Of a DNA stretch of 9,902 nucleotides, positions 1,187-9,902 are shown piece after piece; position 1 is the stretch's first letter, and every line of letters starts with the position of its first letter. The DNA comes from Candidatus Iainarchaeum sp. (GTDB lineage Archaea; Iainarchaeota; Iainarchaeia; Iainarchaeales; CSSED10-239): the NCBI GenBank assembly GCA_028693335.1, contig JAQUVR010000020.1:1-9902 (forward strand). Reading direction: 5' to 3'. Position numbers and translations under genes: made by a program. The notes under the pieces were generated by a model, which did no database searches, had not been told where the DNA came from, and saw nothing but the letters and a program-made list of their open reading frames with translations.

Positions 1187-1600
1187 ATGAATGCTTTAGA
1201 TATTTCTGATTTTGAAATAAAAGAGATGAACGATTATACTTTAATAACTCATAAAAATAGTAAAGGAAACACAACATCTTTTGTAGGGTTAGAATTTTTT
1301 GGTAAAAAAACTATTGTTGCTATATCTGTTGATGCAAAAAGATCTCTTATGCACAATAGTTTGTTTTTTTTAATAATTAATCATCAAAAAATACCTACTG
1401 AACTATTAGAGATGGCAAATTTAATTACTGGGGATTATTATCACAAAGATAAAAAAATAGAAATTAGAAGCACCCAAGGAAATAATAAAAAATTTTTTAA
1501 TGAAGTTGTATCCATATTTAAAAAAACAAAACCTGTTTTAAAATCGAGAAATTTATTTCCAAGAATAAAACCTCAAAAAATAAAAAAGAGACTCTTATGA
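1187..1600 (+). CDS. Hypothetical protein (orphan, about 137 aa), translationally coupled to the next gene
   Basis: This is an open reading frame. The track starts it at TTG 1178, and the first ATG is at 1187. Its TGA stop overlaps the next ATG as ATGA at 1597-1600. I recognise no domain. The C-terminus is Lys/Arg-rich. Confidence 0.7.
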   Translation: MNALDISDFEIKEMNDYTLITHKNSKGNTTSFVGLEFFGKKTIVAISVDAKRSLMHNSLFFLIINHQKIPTELLEMANLITGDYYHKDKKIEIRSTQGNNKKFFNEVVSIFKKTKPVLKSRNLFPRIKPQKIKKRLL

Positions 1601-2496
1601 AACCACCAATGAAAAAAGCAAAGATAGATTATCATCAATTTATAAGAGAATTGTCTAATCATAATCAAGGGAAAAAACCAGAACTACCAAAAGAATTAGA
1701 AAACAAATTAAGAAAATTAACTCAAGAAGAATTTCATGATCTAAGACATAATGGCTCATTTGCAAGAATATTTGAAAAATTAAAAGATAGTTTTGCAATT
1801 CAAAGAATTGAAGATCATATTAAATCTAGACAAAATAACAAGGCAGTGCGTAATTTTCATATAATAAAAAATAAATCAAAAAACAAAGGCGAGCGAACAT
1901 TTTTAGTTTATAAAGATGGAGTTCTTTATAGAAATGTTTCTCCAGGTACTTTTTTTATTTGGAAGAGATTACTTGACAAAAAAATTTCTGTTGAACCAAT
2001 TGTTGGTGGTGCTAGTAAAGCAGAAATAAAAGCTCTTGAAAAAATAGGTTGTTTTTTAGAAGAAGGAGATTTATTAATAAAATCTGAACCTGTTGGGGTT
2101 TCTTTTGCCTTACATCCAGATCACCCAAATACAAGGGTTAACACTTTAGAAACACTATTGAAAAGCAATTTAGTTAATAAATTAACTACAGATCAGAAAA
2201 TGAGTTTAACAAGACAAATAATAAAAACAATAACTAGTGTTTGGCAAGAAGGGTATGTTCATAAACACCCACATCTTGGTAATTGGGCTGTTGAATTTGT
2301 AAAGGGAGAACCAAAAGTTACATTGATTGATATGGATGGATTGAGTAAGATTAATTGGGGTCATCTAGCAACATCTCCTATTTTAGATCATGGTCAAGTA
2401 AAAGAAATAATCAAAGAACTAAGATTACCAAGAGAATATTCAAAAATTGCATATTCTTTATTAGATAAAAAATTAAGCCAAGTAAGTAAAAAATAA
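1597..2496 (+). CDS. Protein-kinase-like-fold protein, paralog 1, with a degenerate catalytic loop (HKHPHLGNW, IDMDG)
   Basis: The ORF is 299 aa. GYVHKHPHLGNW (loop at nt 2260-2286) aligns with the HxDxHxGN / HADPHPGN catalytic loop of APH, Kdo-kinase and UbiB-ABC1 type kinases, but has His where the catalytic Asp should be. VTLIDMDG (2326-2340) sits about 20 aa downstream, where the DFG-equivalent is expected. By eye, roughly half the residues are identical to the next ORF. Confidence 0.85.
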   Translation: MKPPMKKAKIDYHQFIRELSNHNQGKKPELPKELENKLRKLTQEEFHDLRHNGSFARIFEKLKDSFAIQRIEDHIKSRQNNKAVRNFHIIKNKSKNKGERTFLVYKDGVLYRNVSPGTFFIWKRLLDKKISVEPIVGGASKAEIKALEKIGCFLEEGDLLIKSEPVGVSFALHPDHPNTRVNTLETLLKSNLVNKLTTDQKMSLTRQIIKTITSVWQEGYVHKHPHLGNWAVEFVKGEPKVTLIDMDGLSKINWGHLATSPILDHGQVKEIIKELRLPREYSKIAYSLLDKKLSQVSKK

Positions 2497-2512
2497 AATA
2501 AGAGAATTACTA

Positions 2513-3436
2513 ATGTTAAAATTATTTAAAAAAAAACCAAAAGTAATGAAATATGAATCCTTTTTAACAGAACTTAGTAAATATAATCAGGGGAAAAAAC
2601 CAGAGCTACCTAAAGAACTTAAAAAAAAGTTAGAACAATTAAGTCAAGAAGATTATAATAGACTAAAAACAAATAAAAACTTTTCAAGAATATTTAATCA
2701 ATTAAAAGACACTTTTGCAACTCAAAAAATTGAAGATTCTATTAAATCTAAGGAACACAGAACAAGAATAAGAAACTATCATGTAATAAAAACTCAATCT
2801 CTGCGCGAAAATTTTTTAAATCCTGATCCAACATTTTTAGTTTATAGGGCGGGAGTGTTATATAGGAATTTGTCAAATAAAAAATATCAATTATGGAAAG
2901 AATTATTAGATAATGGCATATCTGTTGAAAAAATAATTGGTGTAGCAACAGAAAGAGAAATAACAGAATTAGAAATGGCTGGTTGTAAGTTAGGTCCTGG
3001 AGAAATAATGGTTAAATCTAAGGCTGCTGGAATGACTTTAGATCTACATCGTCAACATCCAAATCCAAAAATAAATACTATTAGCACATTAATAAAAAGT
3101 GAACTACGAAAAGATCTTAGTATTGATCAAAAAATGAGCATAGTGCGTCAAGTAATAACAACAACAAGTCAAATTTGGGATTTAGGTTATATGCATTATC
3201 ATCCACATTTAGGAAATTGGGCCATTGAATTTAAAAATGGGCATCCAAAAGTTACATTAATAGATTTTGATATGATTACAAAGATATATTCAAAAAAATT
3301 TAATCAAAATCCATATAATTATGATTATCAATCTTTAAATGAAATAATTAGATCTTTTAATCTCCCAGAAGATTACAGAAATAAGGCAATTAATTTATTA
3401 AATAGAAAAATAAAAAAAGCAGTAATACGAAAATAA
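2513..3436 (+). CDS. Protein-kinase-like-fold protein, paralog 2, with a degenerate catalytic loop (HYHPHLGNW, IDFDM)
   Basis: The ORF is 307 aa and is collinear with the previous protein along its whole length. Shared blocks include NQGKKPELPKEL, FLVY+xGVLYRN, DQKMS and HPHLGNWAxEF. The loop is at nt 3194-3220 and IDFDM is at 3260-3274. An alternative start at ATG 2546 (M12) would align better with paralog 1. Confidence 0.85.
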   Translation: MLKLFKKKPKVMKYESFLTELSKYNQGKKPELPKELKKKLEQLSQEDYNRLKTNKNFSRIFNQLKDTFATQKIEDSIKSKEHRTRIRNYHVIKTQSLRENFLNPDPTFLVYRAGVLYRNLSNKKYQLWKELLDNGISVEKIIGVATEREITELEMAGCKLGPGEIMVKSKAAGMTLDLHRQHPNPKINTISTLIKSELRKDLSIDQKMSIVRQVITTTSQIWDLGYMHYHPHLGNWAIEFKNGHPKVTLIDFDMITKIYSKKFNQNPYNYDYQSLNEIIRSFNLPEDYRNKAINLLNRKIKKAVIRK

Positions 3437-3443
3437 TATTTTT

Positions 3444-3450
3444 GAGGTGA
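3444..3450 (+). promoter_or_regulatory. Strong Shine-Dalgarno site (GAGGTGA) for the kinase-deaminase fusion gene
   Basis: GAGGTGA is complementary to the conserved 16S 3' tail (anti-SD CCUCC core) and lies 5 nt upstream of the ATG at 3456. The GTG at 3447 used by the ORF track lies inside this motif, so it is unlikely to be the real start. Confidence 0.7.
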
Positions 3451-3455
3451 AAAAT

Positions 3456-4544
3456 ATGATAGTTGGAATAACAGGGTTTTTAGCATCAGGAAAAGGAGTA
3501 GTATCAGAATATCTTAAAGAAAAAGGTTTTATAATTTATTCTTGTTCAGATGAAATAAGAGAAGAATGTAGAAAAGAAAATATAGAAATAACCAGAGATA
3601 ATTTGCAAAAAACAGGAAATCTTTTAAGAGAAAAATTTGGGCCTAATATTTTAGCAAAAAGATTATCTGATAGAATAAAATTAAAAGGTTTGGAAAATAA
3701 TTATGTTATTGAATCAATAAGAACTGAAGGAGAAATTAATGAATTAAAAAAATTATCAAAATTCAATTTAATTTTTATAGATGCTGATGAAAAAACAAGA
3801 TATCAAAGAGCGAAAGAAAGACTAAAAGAAAAAGAACATATTGATAGTTTTGAAAATTTTTTAGCTTCAGAAAAAAAGGAAATGAATAATGCTGATCCAA
3901 ATGCTCAAAATCTTTTAAAATGTAAAGAATTATCTGAATTTATATTAGATAATAATGGATCAATTGAAGATCTAAAACACCAAATAGAAGATCTTTTATT
4001 AAATATTCAAATAAAACAAAGAACAAAACCAGATTGGGATGAATATTTTTTAAAAATTGCAGAAGTTATATCATTAAGAGAAAGTTGTATTTCTGCAAGA
4101 ATTGGTGCAGTTATAACAAAAGACAATGTAATTAAATCAACAGGATATGCTGGTGCACCAAGGGGAACAAAAGACTGCTTTGAAAAAGGATATTGTCTTA
4201 GACGAAAATTAAATGTACCATCTGGTCAACAATATGAACTTTGTGCAAGTGTCCATGCAGAGCAAAATGCAATAATTAACGCTGCAAGAGATGGTGTCTC
4301 GATATTGGGTGGGACACTTTATATTGTTGGTAAAAAAACTTATCAAGGATTAGAAAAGCCAATAGATGCATTTCCTTGTTTTATTTGTAAAAAAATGATT
4401 ATTAATGCAGGCATAAAAAGAGTAGTTTGCTCAACTGCTGATGCAAAATATAAAGTGTTTTTGGTAGAAGATTGGGTAAGAGAATGGCAAAAAGAAGACA
4501 TTATAAATGACAAGGATAAATATGGTACAAATTATTCAAAATAA
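3456..4544 (+). CDS. Fusion protein: N-terminal P-loop nucleotide kinase-like domain (dephospho-CoA-kinase/UPF0200-like) plus C-terminal dCMP/cytidine deaminase domain (ComEB-type)
   Basis: The Walker A motif GITGFLASGKG is at nt 3465-3497 and the N-terminal half looks like a kinase. The C-terminal half, from about nt 4026, carries WDEYFLKIAEVISLRESC, the zinc motif HAE (4254-4262, CASVHAEQNAI) and PCxxC (4374-4388, PCFICKKMIINAGIKRVV). Together these are the canonical dCMP deaminase signature. Confidence 0.9.
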   Translation: MIVGITGFLASGKGVVSEYLKEKGFIIYSCSDEIREECRKENIEITRDNLQKTGNLLREKFGPNILAKRLSDRIKLKGLENNYVIESIRTEGEINELKKLSKFNLIFIDADEKTRYQRAKERLKEKEHIDSFENFLASEKKEMNNADPNAQNLLKCKELSEFILDNNGSIEDLKHQIEDLLLNIQIKQRTKPDWDEYFLKIAEVISLRESCISARIGAVITKDNVIKSTGYAGAPRGTKDCFEKGYCLRRKLNVPSGQQYELCASVHAEQNAIINAARDGVSILGGTLYIVGKKTYQGLEKPIDAFPCFICKKMIINAGIKRVVCSTADAKYKVFLVEDWVREWQKEDIINDKDKYGTNYSK

Positions 4545-5321
4545 TTATTTAGAGAATATAATTTTATCATAATTTCTATTAACAATATTTTCCATTTCTT
4601 TTAATGTTGTTAAATATTCTCTATACATGTTTTCTAAATGTTTAAATTTGATTTTAATATCTGGATTTAGAACATAAGAAACATTTATGCCCATTTTTTT
4701 ATATTTAAACATCTGTGCAATTTTAATTAACATGTTTTGAATACTTATTTTTGTTTTTTTCTTAGAAATCACTCTGTATTTCTGGTTAACAATTTTATTT
4801 ATTACTTGATTTGCAAGTTTGAAAAAAAGTAATTTCGTTTTATTTACATTAATTTGAGAAATATATTTTTTTGTATTCTTTTTATCATATTCTTTAATAA
4901 TATTTTTTAGTAATTTTTTTGGGAAATAGGGAATAATAATTTTGGCTTTTTCAAATTCTGCATCTAAATAACATTCACAGATTGAATGTTCTATTGAATA
5001 ATAGATGTTTTTTTTGTGAAAATAATTGTGAATATTTCTATCTAATAAAAAATGAGAAATAAATCCAATTGCAAAACAAATTTCTTTTTTTGTTTTTGCA
5101 TTAATTAAAAGTTTTTCTCCAAAATCTAGTCCATTATTGTCTTGATGAAGAAAATGACTTAAATTAGGATATTTATTATAATCTTTAATTTGAGTAAAAT
5201 AAAACAAATCCGGATAAATTGATCCACTCATTAAATAATTAAGATCTTTTTTTGTAAATAATTTGGGGTGTTTGTCTTTAATTTCTTTAATAAGTGCCAT
5301 GTGTGTTAATATGCTTGCCAT
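4545..5321 (-). CDS. Zinc-dependent phospholipase C / P1-nuclease superfamily protein, paralog A
   Basis: The ORF is 258 aa. The metal-ligand pattern is in the order typical of the family: N-terminal ILTH, YPD, SHFLH, SHFLLDRNIH (HxxxDxxxH) and EHSICE (HxxxE). There is no signal peptide. A Lys-rich C-terminal half of about 130 aa has no recognisable domain. Confidence 0.8.
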   Translation of the reverse strand: MASILTHMALIKEIKDKHPKLFTKKDLNYLMSGSIYPDLFYFTQIKDYNKYPNLSHFLHQDNNGLDFGEKLLINAKTKKEICFAIGFISHFLLDRNIHNYFHKKNIYYSIEHSICECYLDAEFEKAKIIIPYFPKKLLKNIIKEYDKKNTKKYISQINVNKTKLLFFKLANQVINKIVNQKYRVISKKKTKISIQNMLIKIAQMFKYKKMGINVSYVLNPDIKIKFKHLENMYREYLTTLKEMENIVNRNYDKIIFSK

Positions 5322-5324
5322 CTG

Positions 5325-6086
5325 TTATCTTTTTTTAATATTTACTGCATTATCAAAATTTAATGCGAAAAATTTCTTTTTTGCAATATTATATTCATTA
5401 GTTAGATCATATAAATATTTTTTTTTAATCTCTGCTTTTGGATAAATTATTTCATTAATGTCAGATTTCATTTTAATTGCGTGTTTTTTACCAAAATGAT
5501 ACATTAAAACATCTAAAAAATAAACTTTTTTTGAATTGTCTGTGTTTCTGTATTTTTTTGTTACTAGGTGTTTTTGAATTATATTATTTACTATAGAAAA
5601 ATAATATCTTCTTTGTAAAACACTTGTAAAATAATTTTTAGAAATTTCCGGATATTCGTGTTTTAGTACTCTGTTAATTAATGCTTTACAATATTTTGGC
5701 ACAGGAATGTTTTTATTTTTAAATTGTGCATCTAAGAAAAATTCACACACTGTGTGATAAACAGATTTTTTGATTTTTTTTTTTGTAAGATAACCGTGGA
5801 TTTGATTATCTAAAATAAAATGTGACATAAAACCAATAGCAAAAGATCTTTCTTTTTTATTTTTACTATACTCTAACATTTTTTTGCCAAACATAAATCC
5901 ATTTTTGCCAGTGTGCCAAAATCTGCTTAGATTGTCATCAGGTGTGTGATGATAACATAAAAATAAGTTAACATCTGGAAAAACAGCTCCAGAATATAGA
6001 TAAGCTTTATCTAAATGTTCAAATTTTTTTTTTTGTTCAACTAAACTTTCAGAAATTAATGAAAGGTGGGTAATTATTCCGGCCAT
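5325..6086 (-). CDS. Zinc-dependent phospholipase C / P1-nuclease superfamily protein, paralog B
   Basis: The ORF is 253 aa and is collinear with paralog A: IITH, FPD, RFWH, SHFILDNQIH, YHTVCE. Its stop is only 3 nt from the paralog A start codon. It contains two T11 (Lys-codon) homopolymers at 5774-5784 and 6024-6034. Confidence 0.8.
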   Translation of the reverse strand: MAGIITHLSLISESLVEQKKKFEHLDKAYLYSGAVFPDVNLFLCYHHTPDDNLSRFWHTGKNGFMFGKKMLEYSKNKKERSFAIGFMSHFILDNQIHGYLTKKKIKKSVYHTVCEFFLDAQFKNKNIPVPKYCKALINRVLKHEYPEISKNYFTSVLQRRYYFSIVNNIIQKHLVTKKYRNTDNSKKVYFLDVLMYHFGKKHAIKMKSDINEIIYPKAEIKKKYLYDLTNEYNIAKKKFFALNFDNAVNIKKR

Positions 6087-6155: not shown

Positions 6156-7352
6156 TTATTTTCCAGAAATAATTTCAATTACGTCGTTGTTTTTTAGTAA
6201 ATGTTCTTTACCAAGAAGCATTTTTGTTTTAACATCAACAGCTTTTATAAAATTATTACCAAAATCAGTATGTAATTTATAAGCAAAATCTAAAGTTGTT
6301 GACTTAGGGGGCATTAAAAAACAATCTGGCAAAACATTTCCATTTTTGTCTTTTAGGCTTTTAGTTCCTCCAGGGTATATTGCCATATATTTTAATACCT
6401 CAAATGCTACAAAATCCACAATTTCTTGGACGCCAGTAGATTTGTGTTTATCTAATATGTTTTTTTGAATAAATTTTAATGCTTCTAATTGTTTTTCAGG
6501 TATGTCCTCTTTTAATATTTTAAAAGAATTTGATCCTGGTAAATATTCAACAATTTTATTTTTGTCTGCTGACTTTAAAGCAAGTTCTGCTTCAGCACAG
6601 CAACCAATTATTTTTATATTTGGAAATTTCTCTTTAATTTCATCTAATTTTTTATTATTTGTTAATAAATCTATTTTGTTTGCTGCAATAACTATTGGTT
6701 TAGTTTTTTCTCTAATTTTTTTAGTGAAATTTAATAATTCTGTTTCACTCCAAGAGAGAACATCTTTATCCTGTAGATTTAAACTTTTTAATGATTGATC
6801 TAATATTTCTTCATTAACGCCCATTCCACTCATAAAAGACAAAAGGGTATTTAATGTTTTTATTTTTCTAACTTGTTGTTCTCTTCCAAGCTTTTCGAAA
6901 TTCTTTTTAAATATTCCAAGTAGCCAAGTTTCTATTTCAGTCAATAAAAAATCAATTTCATTTGCTGGATCATAACTACCTAAGGGAACTGGTCTTCCTT
7001 CTTCATCAGTAGATCCAGAAATATCTATTACTTGTATTAATGCTTGTGCTTGATATAAATCGGTTAAAAATTTATTACCAAGACCTCTTCCTTCACTAGC
7101 CCCTGGAACTAGTCCAGCAACATCAATAATATCTACTGGTATAAATCTTATATGTTCTTTACAAAATCCATGTCTTGGGTTACATTGAGTATTAAAAAAA
7201 CTATCAACACAATTATTTCTAACAAAACCAATACCTTTATTTGGATCTATTGTAGTAAATGGATAATTTGCTGATTCTGCATCCATTAATGTTAATGCCT
7301 TAAAAAATTTAGTTTTTCCTTTATTGGGTGCGCCCACTAATCCTATCATCAT
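6156..7352 (-). CDS. Obg-family (YchF/DRG-related, MJ1332-type) GTP-binding protein with a C-terminal TGS domain
   Basis: The ORF is 398 aa. Motifs seen are G1 GAPNKGKT (nt 7311-7334), G2 YPFTTIDPN, G3 DVAGLVPGASEGRGLGNKFL and G4 NKID. G4 is the GTP-specific NKxD, not the NxxE of bacterial YchF. The C-terminus DFAYKLHTDFGNNFIKAVDVKT...DVIEI is typical of a TGS domain. Confidence 0.9.
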   Translation of the reverse strand: MMIGLVGAPNKGKTKFFKALTLMDAESANYPFTTIDPNKGIGFVRNNCVDSFFNTQCNPRHGFCKEHIRFIPVDIIDVAGLVPGASEGRGLGNKFLTDLYQAQALIQVIDISGSTDEEGRPVPLGSYDPANEIDFLLTEIETWLLGIFKKNFEKLGREQQVRKIKTLNTLLSFMSGMGVNEEILDQSLKSLNLQDKDVLSWSETELLNFTKKIREKTKPIVIAANKIDLLTNNKKLDEIKEKFPNIKIIGCCAEAELALKSADKNKIVEYLPGSNSFKILKEDIPEKQLEALKFIQKNILDKHKSTGVQEIVDFVAFEVLKYMAIYPGGTKSLKDKNGNVLPDCFLMPPKSTTLDFAYKLHTDFGNNFIKAVDVKTKMLLGKEHLLKNNDVIEIISGK

Positions 7353-7358
7353 ATATAA

Positions 7359-8507
7359 TCATTTTAATCCATATTGATTATTTGCAAATTTAGTAATTGA
7401 TTTGATTTCAACAAGGTTCTCTTTAATTAGTTTATTTACTAAATATCTTGCGCCTTGTCTAGTCATTTTTAATTTTTCTGATAATTCATTTACTGTTAAA
7501 TTTGTATTTTTCAGTTCATATAATATTTTTTCTTTGTTACCTTTTATATATCTTTTTGGTTTATTTTGTCTTTTTATAAATTGTTTTATTTTATCGCCTT
7601 TAAAACCCAAATCAATTTCAGGATATTCTTTTAATAAATTACAATAATCAGCATAGAATTTGCCTAATCTTTTAGATAGAATATATAAACAAAATATTCC
7701 TTCTTTTCCTGGTTTTATTGTGCTTATATAATTTAAGTCATTACATAGATTATGTAAATCTGTAATTAATTCTTTGTTTTTTAATCTTATTATAATTAAA
7801 TCTGAATCTATGTGTCCTTCATCTATAATAATTCCAATTAAAAATGCTAACTTGTGTTTCCAATTTTTATTAAATAAGGCTATCGGTATTCTTGCGGTTT
7901 CTGATTTAAAACTATTTGTATTTAAGTTATATATTTTAAAAAACCACTCAGAACAAGTAACAGGAGAATATATTTTAGTTGTTTTATCATTTTGGATATA
8001 ATCTTTTTTATAAATTACATTTCCAAAAATACTCTCGATTTTTTTAAGATATAAAAATCTATATTTTTTATTAAATTGACGATATCCAAAATAAGGAGTT
8101 CTGTTTTTACCATTTATTACAGTTCCGTCTCCAATGTGGTGAGCAATAAGCATATCAAATACTGGGGTTATTTTTATTGGCAATTTTGGATTAATTATCA
8201 TATTTTTGCCTTTTCTACTTTTATAGGCTATAATGTTTTTTTGTAATTGTTTATTCGAAATATTTAATATTTTACAAAGAGACAATATTATTTCTAGATC
8301 TATAAAAGATTTGTGTGCTTTTTTTAATTTGACACAGAAAGTAGAAAAAGGGCAATTTGTATATTTTAATAATTTTTTATAGATTTTTTTTTTATTTTTA
8401 TATTTTTCAGATATTTTTTTATTTATGAGTAATAAAAAAGCTTTTTCTAATTTTATATTTATTTTTCCCTCAAATTCCCAAATATTTACTATATAAGAAT
8501 TTTTCAT
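7359..8507 (-). CDS. Free-standing double-motif LAGLIDADG homing-endonuclease-like protein with a C-terminal winged-helix DNA-binding domain
   Basis: The ORF is 382 aa. Two LAGLIDADG-type motifs lie about 100 aa apart: MLIAHHIGDGTV (nt 8118-8153) and LAFLIGIIIDEGHI (nt 7809-7850). Both keep the acidic residue (D and E). The C-terminus LTVNELSEKLKMTRQGARYLVNKLIKENLVEI (about nt 7392-7532) looks like a MarR/ArsR-type wHTH. The gene is not embedded in an intron or an intein host gene. Confidence 0.8.
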   Translation of the reverse strand: MKNSYIVNIWEFEGKINIKLEKAFLLLINKKISEKYKNKKKIYKKLLKYTNCPFSTFCVKLKKAHKSFIDLEIILSLCKILNISNKQLQKNIIAYKSRKGKNMIINPKLPIKITPVFDMLIAHHIGDGTVINGKNRTPYFGYRQFNKKYRFLYLKKIESIFGNVIYKKDYIQNDKTTKIYSPVTCSEWFFKIYNLNTNSFKSETARIPIALFNKNWKHKLAFLIGIIIDEGHIDSDLIIIRLKNKELITDLHNLCNDLNYISTIKPGKEGIFCLYILSKRLGKFYADYCNLLKEYPEIDLGFKGDKIKQFIKRQNKPKRYIKGNKEKILYELKNTNLTVNELSEKLKMTRQGARYLVNKLIKENLVEIKSITKFANNQYGLK

Positions 8508-8527
8508 TATTTATCTTGTTTATTAGA

Positions 8528-8537
8528 TTTATATAAT
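8528..8537 (-). promoter_or_regulatory. Candidate TATA box for the LAGLIDADG-GTPase transcription unit (leaderless geometry)
   Basis: TTTATATAAT (palindrome-like) is centred about 26 nt upstream of the ATG at 8507. No SD is evident. Confidence 0.3.
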
Positions 8538-8722
8538 AATTAAATTTATTGATTTAATTTTTTAAGCTATTTTTTTAATTGCAAAATATTTTAACCAGTT
8601 AAAGATTTTCCAACAATTCCTATTAACACAATTAATCACAAAAGTTATAATTTTTAAATAATTAGTATTTATATAATATATATAATAATAGAAAACAATA
8701 TAAAAAGATAGAGATCTTAAAA

Positions 8723-9433
8723 ATGTCAAAACCAAAAATAAATAGAATACAATTAAGACAGCATTATTTAGATATAGCTGGTTTTGAAAAAAAAGAATCT
8801 ATGTTTGTGAAAGTTCCTGGAGAAAAAGAACTTGTTGATATTTCTTTTAAAAGAAAAAGAAATAATATCCAGATGAATAATAAAAAATTTAAAGCACATA
8901 TAAGAGAAATGTGTCAAAAATTAGGAATAACCCCTGAAGAATATGGAAAAAGATTAACCATCATACACACACATAGATTTGATGGATCTAAAAAAAAATT
9001 GAAAGAGAATTACCCATTAACTTTATTTAGTATAGCTGATTTTGCAGATTTTTTTGCAAATCATTTAATTTTTAATACCAGAAAAGAGATTTCTGTTTTA
9101 TATGATATTAATAAAAGAGAACCAATGGGTTATACTTTTATTAGTCTAAGAGAACCACTATTAGGAATTTTAAAGAAACTAAAAATTAAAGCATCAACTC
9201 TAAAACCATTTTTAGAACAAAAAAATGGCCTGGCGTTATATTCTGAATTTCTTTTAGCAATTGATGAATATGAAAATAATTTTTTAAAAAGACTTAGAAA
9301 AAAAGATCCAAATTTAGATTCTAGTGTAGCAAGGTATCTTTTAGCTCAAGAATTAGGAATAAATTTAAGATTTTTGGCTGAAGAAAATTATTATTTAGAT
9401 AAAAATGATCTTTGGTTTCATAAAAAGAGCTAA
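8723..9433 (+). CDS. Hypothetical protein (236 aa orphan) with an HxH...SxxD motif
   Basis: This is a clean ORF with a TATA-like element (8667-8678) 45-55 nt upstream. The only motif I noticed is LTIIHTHRF-(x14)-LFSIADF, which is reminiscent of a JAB/MPN metalloprotease but has non-canonical spacing. Confidence 0.75.
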   Translation: MSKPKINRIQLRQHYLDIAGFEKKESMFVKVPGEKELVDISFKRKRNNIQMNNKKFKAHIREMCQKLGITPEEYGKRLTIIHTHRFDGSKKKLKENYPLTLFSIADFADFFANHLIFNTRKEISVLYDINKREPMGYTFISLREPLLGILKKLKIKASTLKPFLEQKNGLALYSEFLLAIDEYENNFLKRLRKKDPNLDSSVARYLLAQELGINLRFLAEENYYLDKNDLWFHKKS

Positions 9434-9676: not shown

Positions 9677-9799
9677 TTGACCGTTTTTTACAAAACACAT
9701 TTACGGGATGAAAGAGTTGGTATTAGTTTGCACTACGTGTAAAAGTAATCATTAAGGTAATTATTCTAAAATATGTGATTTCTTACACAAAACTTTGAT

Positions 9800-9902
9800 T
9801 TTATATAGAGCCAATTAATGGATAACTTGGCTTGTAGACCGATGAAGAGCGTGGCAAGCTGCGATAAGCTTGGGGTAGGCGCATGCAGCCTTTGATCCCA
9901 AG
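9800..9902 (+). rRNA. rrl: 23S (LSU) rRNA, 5' end only. It runs off the window, and the 5' boundary is approximate to about +/-10 nt.
   Basis: AATGGATAACTTGGCTTGTAGACCGATGAAGAGCGTGGCAAGCTGCGATAAGCTTGGGGTAGGCGCATGCAGCCTTTGATCCCAAG matches the universally conserved 23S domain I start (GGUGGAUxxCUxGGC...GAUGAAGGACGUG..AAGCUGCGAUAAGCC..GGGGAG.CGCA....GC.UUGAxCC). It has the archaeal-type CAAGCUGCGAUAAGC rather than the bacterial CUAAUCUGCGAUAAGC. Confidence 0.9.

Follow-up and report, generated by a model that had tools for sequence, protein, structure and literature searches.

A kinase-deaminase fusion gene of Candidatus Iainarchaeum sp.: a probable housekeeping enzyme of pyrimidine deoxynucleotides preceded by lineage-specific kinase-like genes

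Does a tightly packed run of four genes in the archaeon Candidatus Iainarchaeum sp. belong to anti-phage defence or to ordinary nucleotide metabolism? The genes lie at positions 1187-4544 of a stretch of 9,902 nucleotides (contig JAQUVR010000020.1 of assembly GCA_028693335.1, forward strand), the whole of which is called the window here. A sequence-only reading had described them as a same-strand cassette with almost no spacing, made up of an orphan gene, two non-canonical kinase-like paralogs and a fusion of a P-loop kinase-like domain with a dCMP deaminase, and had proposed a defence-type module rather than a housekeeping one. We arrived at a different interpretation, to which we give a probability of about 65%: the fourth gene, g4, encodes a housekeeping enzyme of pyrimidine deoxynucleotides, and g1 and g2, together with g3 where it occurs, are lineage-specific accessory genes lying upstream of it. 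The four genes are as follows.

1187-1600, + strand: g1, 137 aa, an orphan, predicted to be rich in beta structure in its N-terminal part, with a C-terminal tail rich in Lys and Arg
1597-2496, + strand: g2, 299 aa, a minimal protein-kinase-like (PKL) protein, extended at its N-terminus by a helical part
2513-3436, + strand: g3, 307 aa, a paralog of g2
3456-4544, + strand: g4, 362 aa, a P-loop kinase-like domain of the (deoxy)nucleoside monophosphate ((d)NMP) kinase type (about residues 1-185) followed by a zinc dCMP deaminase domain (about residues 190-340)

The layout was checked against the list of open reading frames (ORFs) and the sequence itself, and the coordinates proved exact. The stop and start codons of g1 and g2 overlap by 4 nt (ATGA, 1597-1600), the gap between g2 and g3 is 16 nt (2497-2512) and that between g3 and g4 is 19 nt (3437-3455). 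A strong Shine-Dalgarno sequence had been reported in the last gap, and a motif of this kind is indeed there.

3446-3452, + strand: GAGGTGA, a Shine-Dalgarno-like motif 3 nt before the g4 ATG at 3456

In the mechanically made ORF list, g4 begins at GTG 3447. We took ATG 3456 as the start, because the GTG codon sits inside the Shine-Dalgarno-like motif and because the gene calls on near-identical contigs use the ATG, which gives 362 aa. Judging from their spacing, the four genes are probably co-transcribed; short intergenic gaps are found in the whole window. Other samples yielded three near-identical strains (L001, L004 and L006), which have the same four genes. When each gene was compared with its counterparts in these strains, the differences were overwhelmingly synonymous and dN/dS was 0.04-0.16 (0.05-0.14 for g1). 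Since values below 0.2 and an excess of synonymous changes indicate purifying selection, all four, the orphan included, are real and constrained genes.

The two-domain nature of g4 was recognised by several independent collections of models. In Pfam, AAA_18/AAA_17 matched residues 6-137 (AAA_18, 4.3e-11) and dCMP_cyt_deam_1 (PF00383) matched residues 196-329 (8.5e-17), the latter with 61.4 bits, above the gathering cut-off of 25. Matches in PHROG were to the phage dNMP kinase family phrog_139 (4.8e-17) and to the dCMP deaminase family phrog_174 (6e-42). Among PDB structures, the N-terminal half matched 3h0k/3lw7, the Sulfolobus AdkA-like protein SSO1041 (7.7e-8), and the C-terminal half the dCMP deaminase 2hvv (1.3e-15). 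These matches bear out the proposed fusion. Literature searches on UPF0200/SSO1041 gave nothing specific. An alignment of 46 orthologs was used to look at the active sites, which are these.

3465-3497, + strand: Walker A motif or P-loop of g4, GITGFLASGKG, with G12 and K13 invariant in the 46 orthologs
4254-4388, + strand: zinc and catalytic motifs of the deaminase domain, H267-A-E269 and P307-C308-x-x-C311, all invariant

Several arginines typical of the NMP-binding and lid regions of NMP kinases were also invariant in this alignment. Because both active sites are unchanged in all 46 aligned orthologs, both halves of g4 look catalytically competent.

A search of 5.8 billion proteins with g4 returned 598 matches, and the following description refers to the best 120 of them. 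Almost all of these are two-domain proteins of about 360 aa, with identities down to 40%. By their source names they come mostly from DPANN archaea (Iainarchaeum, Woesearchaeota) and from Patescibacteria of the candidate phyla radiation (CPR; Peregrinibacteria, Falkowbacteria), and one carried a Nitrospirota label. Literature searches returned no specific description of this short DPANN/CPR fusion of a kinase and a dCMP deaminase. The genes standing next to the orthologs were more informative about its role.

L003: g4 ortholog of 76% identity, after the genes for SHMT, a hypothetical protein and ThyX
L015/L016: g4 ortholog of 71% identity, after the genes for SHMT, two hypothetical proteins, ThyA and DHFR
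L017: g4 ortholog of 63% identity, overlapping the stop codon of the thymidylate kinase (Tmk) gene
L018/L019: g4 ortholog of 60% identity, between NDK/ADK and the pyrimidine 5'-nucleotidase UMPH-1

The adjacency to thymidylate synthase genes (ThyX, ThyA), and to DHFR and Tmk, was seen at loci of orthologs from lineages other than that of the window. These contexts argue for an enzyme that supplies dUMP for dTMP synthesis and against a sparse, island-borne defence gene. In the L003 locus, the ThyX gene (8470-9987) codes for 505 aa with two Thy1 matches, apparently a flavin-dependent thymidylate synthase whose domain has been duplicated in tandem. In L003 and L015 alike, small unannotated genes of 146-154 aa separate SHMT from the thymidylate synthase. 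Two unannotated genes that precede g4 in L003, one of 146 aa and one of 319 aa, were considered as divergent counterparts of g1 and g2, and were rejected: neither profile hidden Markov model (HMM) matched them and they had no Pfam match.

The resemblance of g4 to anti-phage dCTP deaminases, already pointed out in the sequence-only reading, is real. The two-domain layout is the same and the homology extends over both domains. The PADLOC dCTPase model (PDLC02373) matched g4 at 1.3e-50, and a BLASTP alignment with the 'anti-phage dCTP deaminase' of an E. coli plasmid (WP_223351761) was collinear over residues 1-324 with 24% identity. From these alignments we conclude that the short DPANN/CPR fusions and the long anti-phage proteins share ancestry. 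The more specific NCBIfam model NF041025, with a cut-off of 400 bits, gave a different picture: it scored the E. coli positive control at 482.7 bits, g4 at 117.6 bits and the thymidylate-linked orthologs at about 98-115 bits. The deaminase domain of g4 is 46-48% identical to stand-alone bacterial deaminases, compared with 24% to the anti-phage dCTP deaminase. Taken with the thymidylate contexts, the wide and conserved spread of the family and the variable genes upstream of it, the low NF041025 score speaks against the proposal that the cassette is of defence type rather than housekeeping.

We therefore favour a housekeeping role, in which the zinc deaminase domain of g4 would make dUMP from dCMP and so provide thymidylate synthase with its substrate. 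The P-loop domain, an active-looking one of the (d)NMP-kinase type, would either phosphorylate a nucleotide of the pathway or act as a nucleotide-sensing regulatory domain. The genes g1 and g2, with g3 as a second copy of g2 in the window's species only, would be a lineage-specific addition placed directly upstream of g4 and probably transcribed with it.

How firmly are these upstream genes attached to g4? In a sister species (L012, a representative metagenome-assembled genome (MAG) in GTDB, and L005, L007, L008 and L009) the order was g1-g2-g4-PLC-PLC-YchF, with equally tight spacing. Identities to the window were 81-86% for g4, about 72% for g2 and 58-61% for g1. The sister species has a single kinase-like gene, and g4 comes directly after g2 (L005, L007, L008, L012). 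The cassette described earlier thus stood in part: the order g1-g2-g4 is kept in two species, and the four-gene order g1-g2-g3-g4 is confined to the window's own. When HMMs of g1 and of g2/g3 were applied to the other lineages examined, in which g4 is at most 76% identical, neither was found near g4. On this wider scale the upstream neighbours of g4 vary freely, and in the distant orthologs they are thymidylate-pathway or other nucleotide genes.

The most persistent neighbour of g4 lies on its other side. Two tandem paralogs of zinc-dependent phospholipase C-like type (Zn_dep_PLPC), about 34-36% identical to each other, follow g4 in convergent orientation, and one or two copies are still found downstream of it in relatives whose g4 is 71-76% identical (L003, L015).

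4545-5321, - strand: first Zn_dep_PLPC gene
5325-6086, - strand: second Zn_dep_PLPC gene

These observations bear on the strongest competing explanation, according to which the genes g1-g2(-g3) form a lineage-specific module without any functional link to g4, beside which they happen to lie in a very compact genome, and the close spacing reflects genome streamlining and not a shared pathway. We regard it as unlikely, although it deserves more weight than any of the other alternatives. It agrees with the short gaps throughout the window and with the finding that each lineage examined has different genes upstream of g4, and members of the kinase-like family occur in many unrelated contexts. It sits less well with the persistence of g1-g2-g4 in two species at a spacing of 2-19 nt while the flanking DUF6159 and CorA genes, and g3, come and go. 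The translational coupling seen in an iscS-X-iscU arrangement, where X is a member of the same family (see below), also suggests that these proteins work with their neighbours.

We then looked at the kinase-like proteins themselves. That g2 and g3 are non-canonical kinase-like paralogs was confirmed by profile matches, by the motif columns and by their mutual identity of 48% over 297 aa (E=6e-102). In a neighbour-joining tree, g3 was sister to the entire g2 clade, so it stems either from an older duplication lost in the sister species or from a recent duplication followed by rapid divergence. The word-indexed search of 5.8 billion proteins returned five close proteins; when 1.84 billion cluster representatives were searched exhaustively with a HMMER profile, 50 matched at E<=1e-3, of which 33 reached E<=1e-10. 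The named members come from Diapherotrites/Iainarchaeum MAGs. Neither Pfam nor NCBIfam has an entry for the family, and g2 and g3 themselves gave no NCBIfam match at E<=1. No relatives were found in IMG/VR viral contigs, and literature searches gave no specific description of such His-substituted archaeal pseudokinases.

When the family profile was compared with the PDB, it matched eukaryotic-type protein kinases (CDPK1, CK1, DAPK) with E down to 3e-8. The match covered the hinge, the catalytic loop and the DFG motif, with HgHpHlGN opposite HRDLKPEN and IDFD opposite IDFG. Among 38 aligned members, sub-threshold Pfam matches were obtained to ABC1 (8/38), Kdo/WaaP (4/38) and Pkinase (3/38), the best E-values being 1e-4 to 7.5e-4. 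The archaeal Bud32 model TIGR03724 weakly matched 11 of the 38 (best 1.1e-7); g3 did not match it. The alignment is characterised by the motifs YR...W..L..G(I/L)xVE(P)I...VKSK..G...RQ...W..GYxHxHPHxGNW...PKVxLIDFD, of which the catalytic-loop and DFG-equivalent parts are located as follows.

2260-2331, + strand: H222, H224, H226, N229 ... D245 of g2, invariant columns, aligned to CDPK1
3194-3265, + strand: H228, H230, H232, N235 ... D251 of g3, from the family alignment

The catalytic loop of g2 reads H-K-H-P-H-L-G-N in place of H-R-D-L-K-P-x-N. At the column of the catalytic Asp (HxD), His was found in 36/38 members, including g2 and g3; the remaining two keep the Asp, and one of them has the canonical HTDLKPGN. 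The Mg/ATP ligands, the catalytic-loop Asn (N235) and the DFG Asp (D251), are present in 38/38. The presumed beta3 position is basic in 36/36, being mostly Arg rather than Lys, and Glu139 (37/38) and Gln213 (38/38) are also conserved. We recognised no glycine-rich loop and no conserved alphaC Glu in the 38 sequences. An AlphaFold2 model of g2 from a 6-sequence alignment reached a mean confidence (pLDDT) of 51.5, with less than 50 in the core, too poor to confirm the fold. To judge from these columns, the site is a conserved and remodelled one that keeps its Mg/ATP ligands, and not that of a decaying pseudokinase. It would be suited to nucleotide binding or ATP hydrolysis, or the three His may form a metal site, rather than to classical phosphotransfer.

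Members of the PKL family turned up in other operons. A subfamily of 250-268 aa lies between the genes for IscS (cysteine desulfurase, Aminotran_5) and IscU (NifU_N) at three loci from at least two lineages.

L013, 7941-8747: PKL gene between iscS and iscU
L023, 6001-6762: PKL gene between iscS and iscU
L024, 5308-6069: PKL gene between iscS and iscU

The iscS-PKL-iscU series has overlapping stop and start codons in L023 and L024. These arrangements suggest that, in some DPANN archaea, the operon for Fe-S assembly has the PKL member as a third, so far uncharacterised component. Further members adjoin genes for SerRS, for a Peptidase_M24 of the methionine-aminopeptidase type and for a serpin. 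No deaminase was found near the members at the iscS/iscU, SerRS, M24 and serpin loci. Since it occurs in such unrelated operons, the family is not specifically tied to nucleotide metabolism, and it seems to have been inserted into various operons.

Bud32, the kinase/ATPase of KEOPS, acts as an ATPase partner of Kae1. By analogy with this pair, and because of the embedding of family members between iscS and iscU, we infer a partner or regulatory role for g2 and g3. They are most likely Bud32-style nucleotide-binding or ATPase partners rather than classical phosphotransferases, and may adjust the activity of an enzyme encoded beside them. In this clade that enzyme could be g4, and g1 might be a small partner.

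About g1 less can be said. It had no match in Pfam, NCBIfam, PHROG or PDB and no relatives in IMG/VR viral contigs, and its orthologs were found solely beside g2, directly upstream of it (L005, L007, L008, L009 and L012). A single-sequence model had a pLDDT of 47.8 and predicted, with low confidence, a beta-rich body and a very basic tail. We rejected an assignment to PADLOC PDC-M38A (E=7e-4), which matched only the 2 copies of the window's species out of 5 orthologs and was unsupported elsewhere. The possibility that g1 is a split-off N-terminal domain of the longer PKL members was also dropped, as no similarity beyond noise could be seen.

Several points weigh against the housekeeping interpretation. 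In the window's clade, thymidylate genes do not stand beside g4 on the available contigs of at most 18 kb. The tight linkage of g1, g2 and g4 in two species is also compatible with a dedicated function. The role proposed for the kinase-like proteins is drawn solely from motifs and analogy, and the models of g2 and g1 are too poor to indicate a fold or an interface. Finally, the g4 family is a genuine homolog of the defence deaminases, so some activity on dCTP would be possible.

A bolder idea goes beyond the housekeeping interpretation, and we consider it rather improbable. The HxHxHxxN...D family might be a new class of active, His-based kinase-fold ATPases or switches, inserted into operons of Iainarchaeota as dedicated partners of particular enzymes: of IscS/IscU in one case, and here of g4, with g1 as an adaptor. 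In that case g4 could be a conditionally gated dC-to-dU switch, and the nucleotide-depletion enzymes of bacterial defence would have in it an archaeal counterpart or precursor.

Still less probable is that g2 and g3 are small-molecule kinases, acting on a nucleoside, nucleotide or cofactor and extending a salvage pathway into g4. The weak same-fold matches to ABC1, Kdo/WaaP and APH would fit such a role, as would the position next to a nucleotide enzyme and the retention of the ATP/Mg ligands. It is difficult to reconcile with the replacement of the catalytic base Asp by His in nearly all members and with the missing glycine-rich loop and alphaC Glu, and other members are found in contexts unrelated to nucleotides (Fe-S assembly, SerRS, peptidase).

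The least probable of all is the defence module, in which infection would set off a depletion of dC nucleotides by g4, with g1-g3 as its sensors or regulators: g4 shares the architecture and ancestry of the anti-phage enzymes, kinase-like proteins do occur in some defence systems, a weak Stk2 match (E=0.005) was obtained and one PKL member gave a MADS6 match, but g4 scores far below the NF041025 cut-off and lacks the deaminase insert and C-terminal extension of the defence proteins, its orthologs are conserved members of thymidylate operons, no mobile-element signature surrounds the cassette, neither g1 nor the PKL family has relatives among IMG/VR viral contigs, and the PDC-M38A match of g1 is marginal and absent from its orthologs.

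The genomic setting is consistent with a stable chromosomal locus. It had been asked whether the cassette sits in a variable or island-like region, and this was not the case. The region around it is collinear between the window's species and the sister species, the G+C content of the window (about 25%) is flat, with no compositional break over the cassette, and around it we found neither a tRNA nor an integrase gene, nor a composition typical of an island. The collinearity in two species, the flat G+C content and a nearby 23S rRNA gene together led us to regard the setting as stable. The rRNA match confirms an archaeal chromosome and a core-genome location.

9794-9902, + strand: 5' end of an archaeal large-subunit (23S) rRNA gene (Rfam RF02540, 79 bits), truncated where the window stops

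Two further differences between the species are small indels in an otherwise collinear region. The DUF6159 gene, upstream of g1, is absent from the corresponding position of the sister species (L012), where a 65-aa ORF (4-201) directly precedes g1. Similarly, a CorA gene is present in L004 and is not found at the matching place in L012. Between the DUF6159 gene and g1, a hairpin with a T-tract at 1138-1179 had been suggested as a possible boundary between the cassette and the gene before it.

294-1154, + strand: DUF6159 membrane-protein gene, upstream of g1
1137-1179, + strand: A/T-rich purine/pyrimidine stem with a T-tract, between the DUF6159 stop codon (1154) and g1

The T-tract is there, but the hairpin did not stand up: the stem has a minimum free energy of -11.2 kcal/mol (z=-1.38), and 24 of 200 shuffled sequences folded equally well. 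The element is possibly an archaeal oligo-T terminator. A scan for sigma-70 promoters gave a chance-level result, which is in any case irrelevant for an archaeon.

Further downstream, a segment of about 1.24 kb is absent from L001 and L004, where YchF is directly followed by a gene for a 236-aa protein. Its junctions carry an imperfect duplication, of about 33 bp, of the 5' end of YchF (7329-7361 and 8606-8638), and it appears that a free-standing gene of homing-endonuclease-like type was inserted here in a strain-specific manner. The 236-aa protein has no Pfam match and is 90-93% identical in sister strains; a weak match to the XPA/Rad14 DNA-repair model TIGR00598 (E=6.8e-4) was well below the cut-off.

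7362-8605: strain-specific segment
7359-8507, - strand: ORF of 382 aa; domains LAGLIDADG_3 and, at the C-terminus, a winged helix (MarR_2)
8723-9433, + strand: gene for the 236-aa protein

If the housekeeping interpretation is correct, it is a caution against calling defence systems from domain architecture alone. The strong PADLOC dCTPase match to a fusion of housekeeping type means that 'dCTP deaminase defence' may be over-called in DPANN/CPR genomes. The common ancestry of the short fusions and the long anti-phage proteins would also help to follow the path by which a metabolic enzyme came to serve in immunity. As for g2 and g3, they represent a small, uncatalogued kinase-fold family with an Asp-to-His change in the catalytic loop, found in different operons of one archaeal lineage, and offer a tractable target for the study of non-canonical kinase-fold chemistry.

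Compared with known systems, g4 resembles the anti-phage dCTP deaminase in its collinear order of domains, P-loop kinase-like at the N-terminus and zinc deaminase at the C-terminus; in the bacterial system both domains are required for defence and the protein has 576 aa (Tal et al., preprint, 10.1101/2021.04.26.441389). The two differ in length (362 aa for g4, 527-576 aa for the anti-phage proteins), g4 being without an insert of about 60 aa that precedes the HAE motif in the deaminase domain of the anti-phage protein and without a counterpart of its C-terminal extension, about 120 residues of which are unmatched. They differ as well in distribution, which is conserved and linked to thymidylate operons for g4, and sparse and linked to islands for the anti-phage enzyme. 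In the AvcID system, where AvcD is a related deaminase, a gene for a small RNA (sRNA) antitoxin lies immediately upstream, whereas g4 is preceded by only 19 nt after g3; an Rfam scan of the cassette gave no match, so an antitoxin sRNA of the AvcID type was not seen, although an unmodelled RNA overlapping g3 is possible. With the housekeeping dCMP deaminases (ComEB; structures 2hvv, 1vq2 and 2w4l), g4 shares the zinc site made of HAE and PCxxC. Unlike these stand-alone enzymes, it carries the fused N-terminal (d)NMP-kinase-like domain, and it stays below the ComEB equivalog cut-off (66 vs 219 bits).

For g2 and g3, sequence comparison indicates that the closest relatives are Bud32 and ABC1. No Kae1 annotation was recognised among the neighbours at any PKL locus examined. 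The consensus motif of ABC1 is HADPHPGN, which is mirrored by HxHPHxGN of the PKL family. The family departs from Bud32 and ABC1 in the change of the catalytic Asp to His and of the beta3 Lys mostly to Arg, and it scores below every curated cut-off. What Bud32, ABC1/UbiB and the PKL family have in common is a small kinase core with a hinge, a catalytic-loop Asn and a DFG-type Asp.

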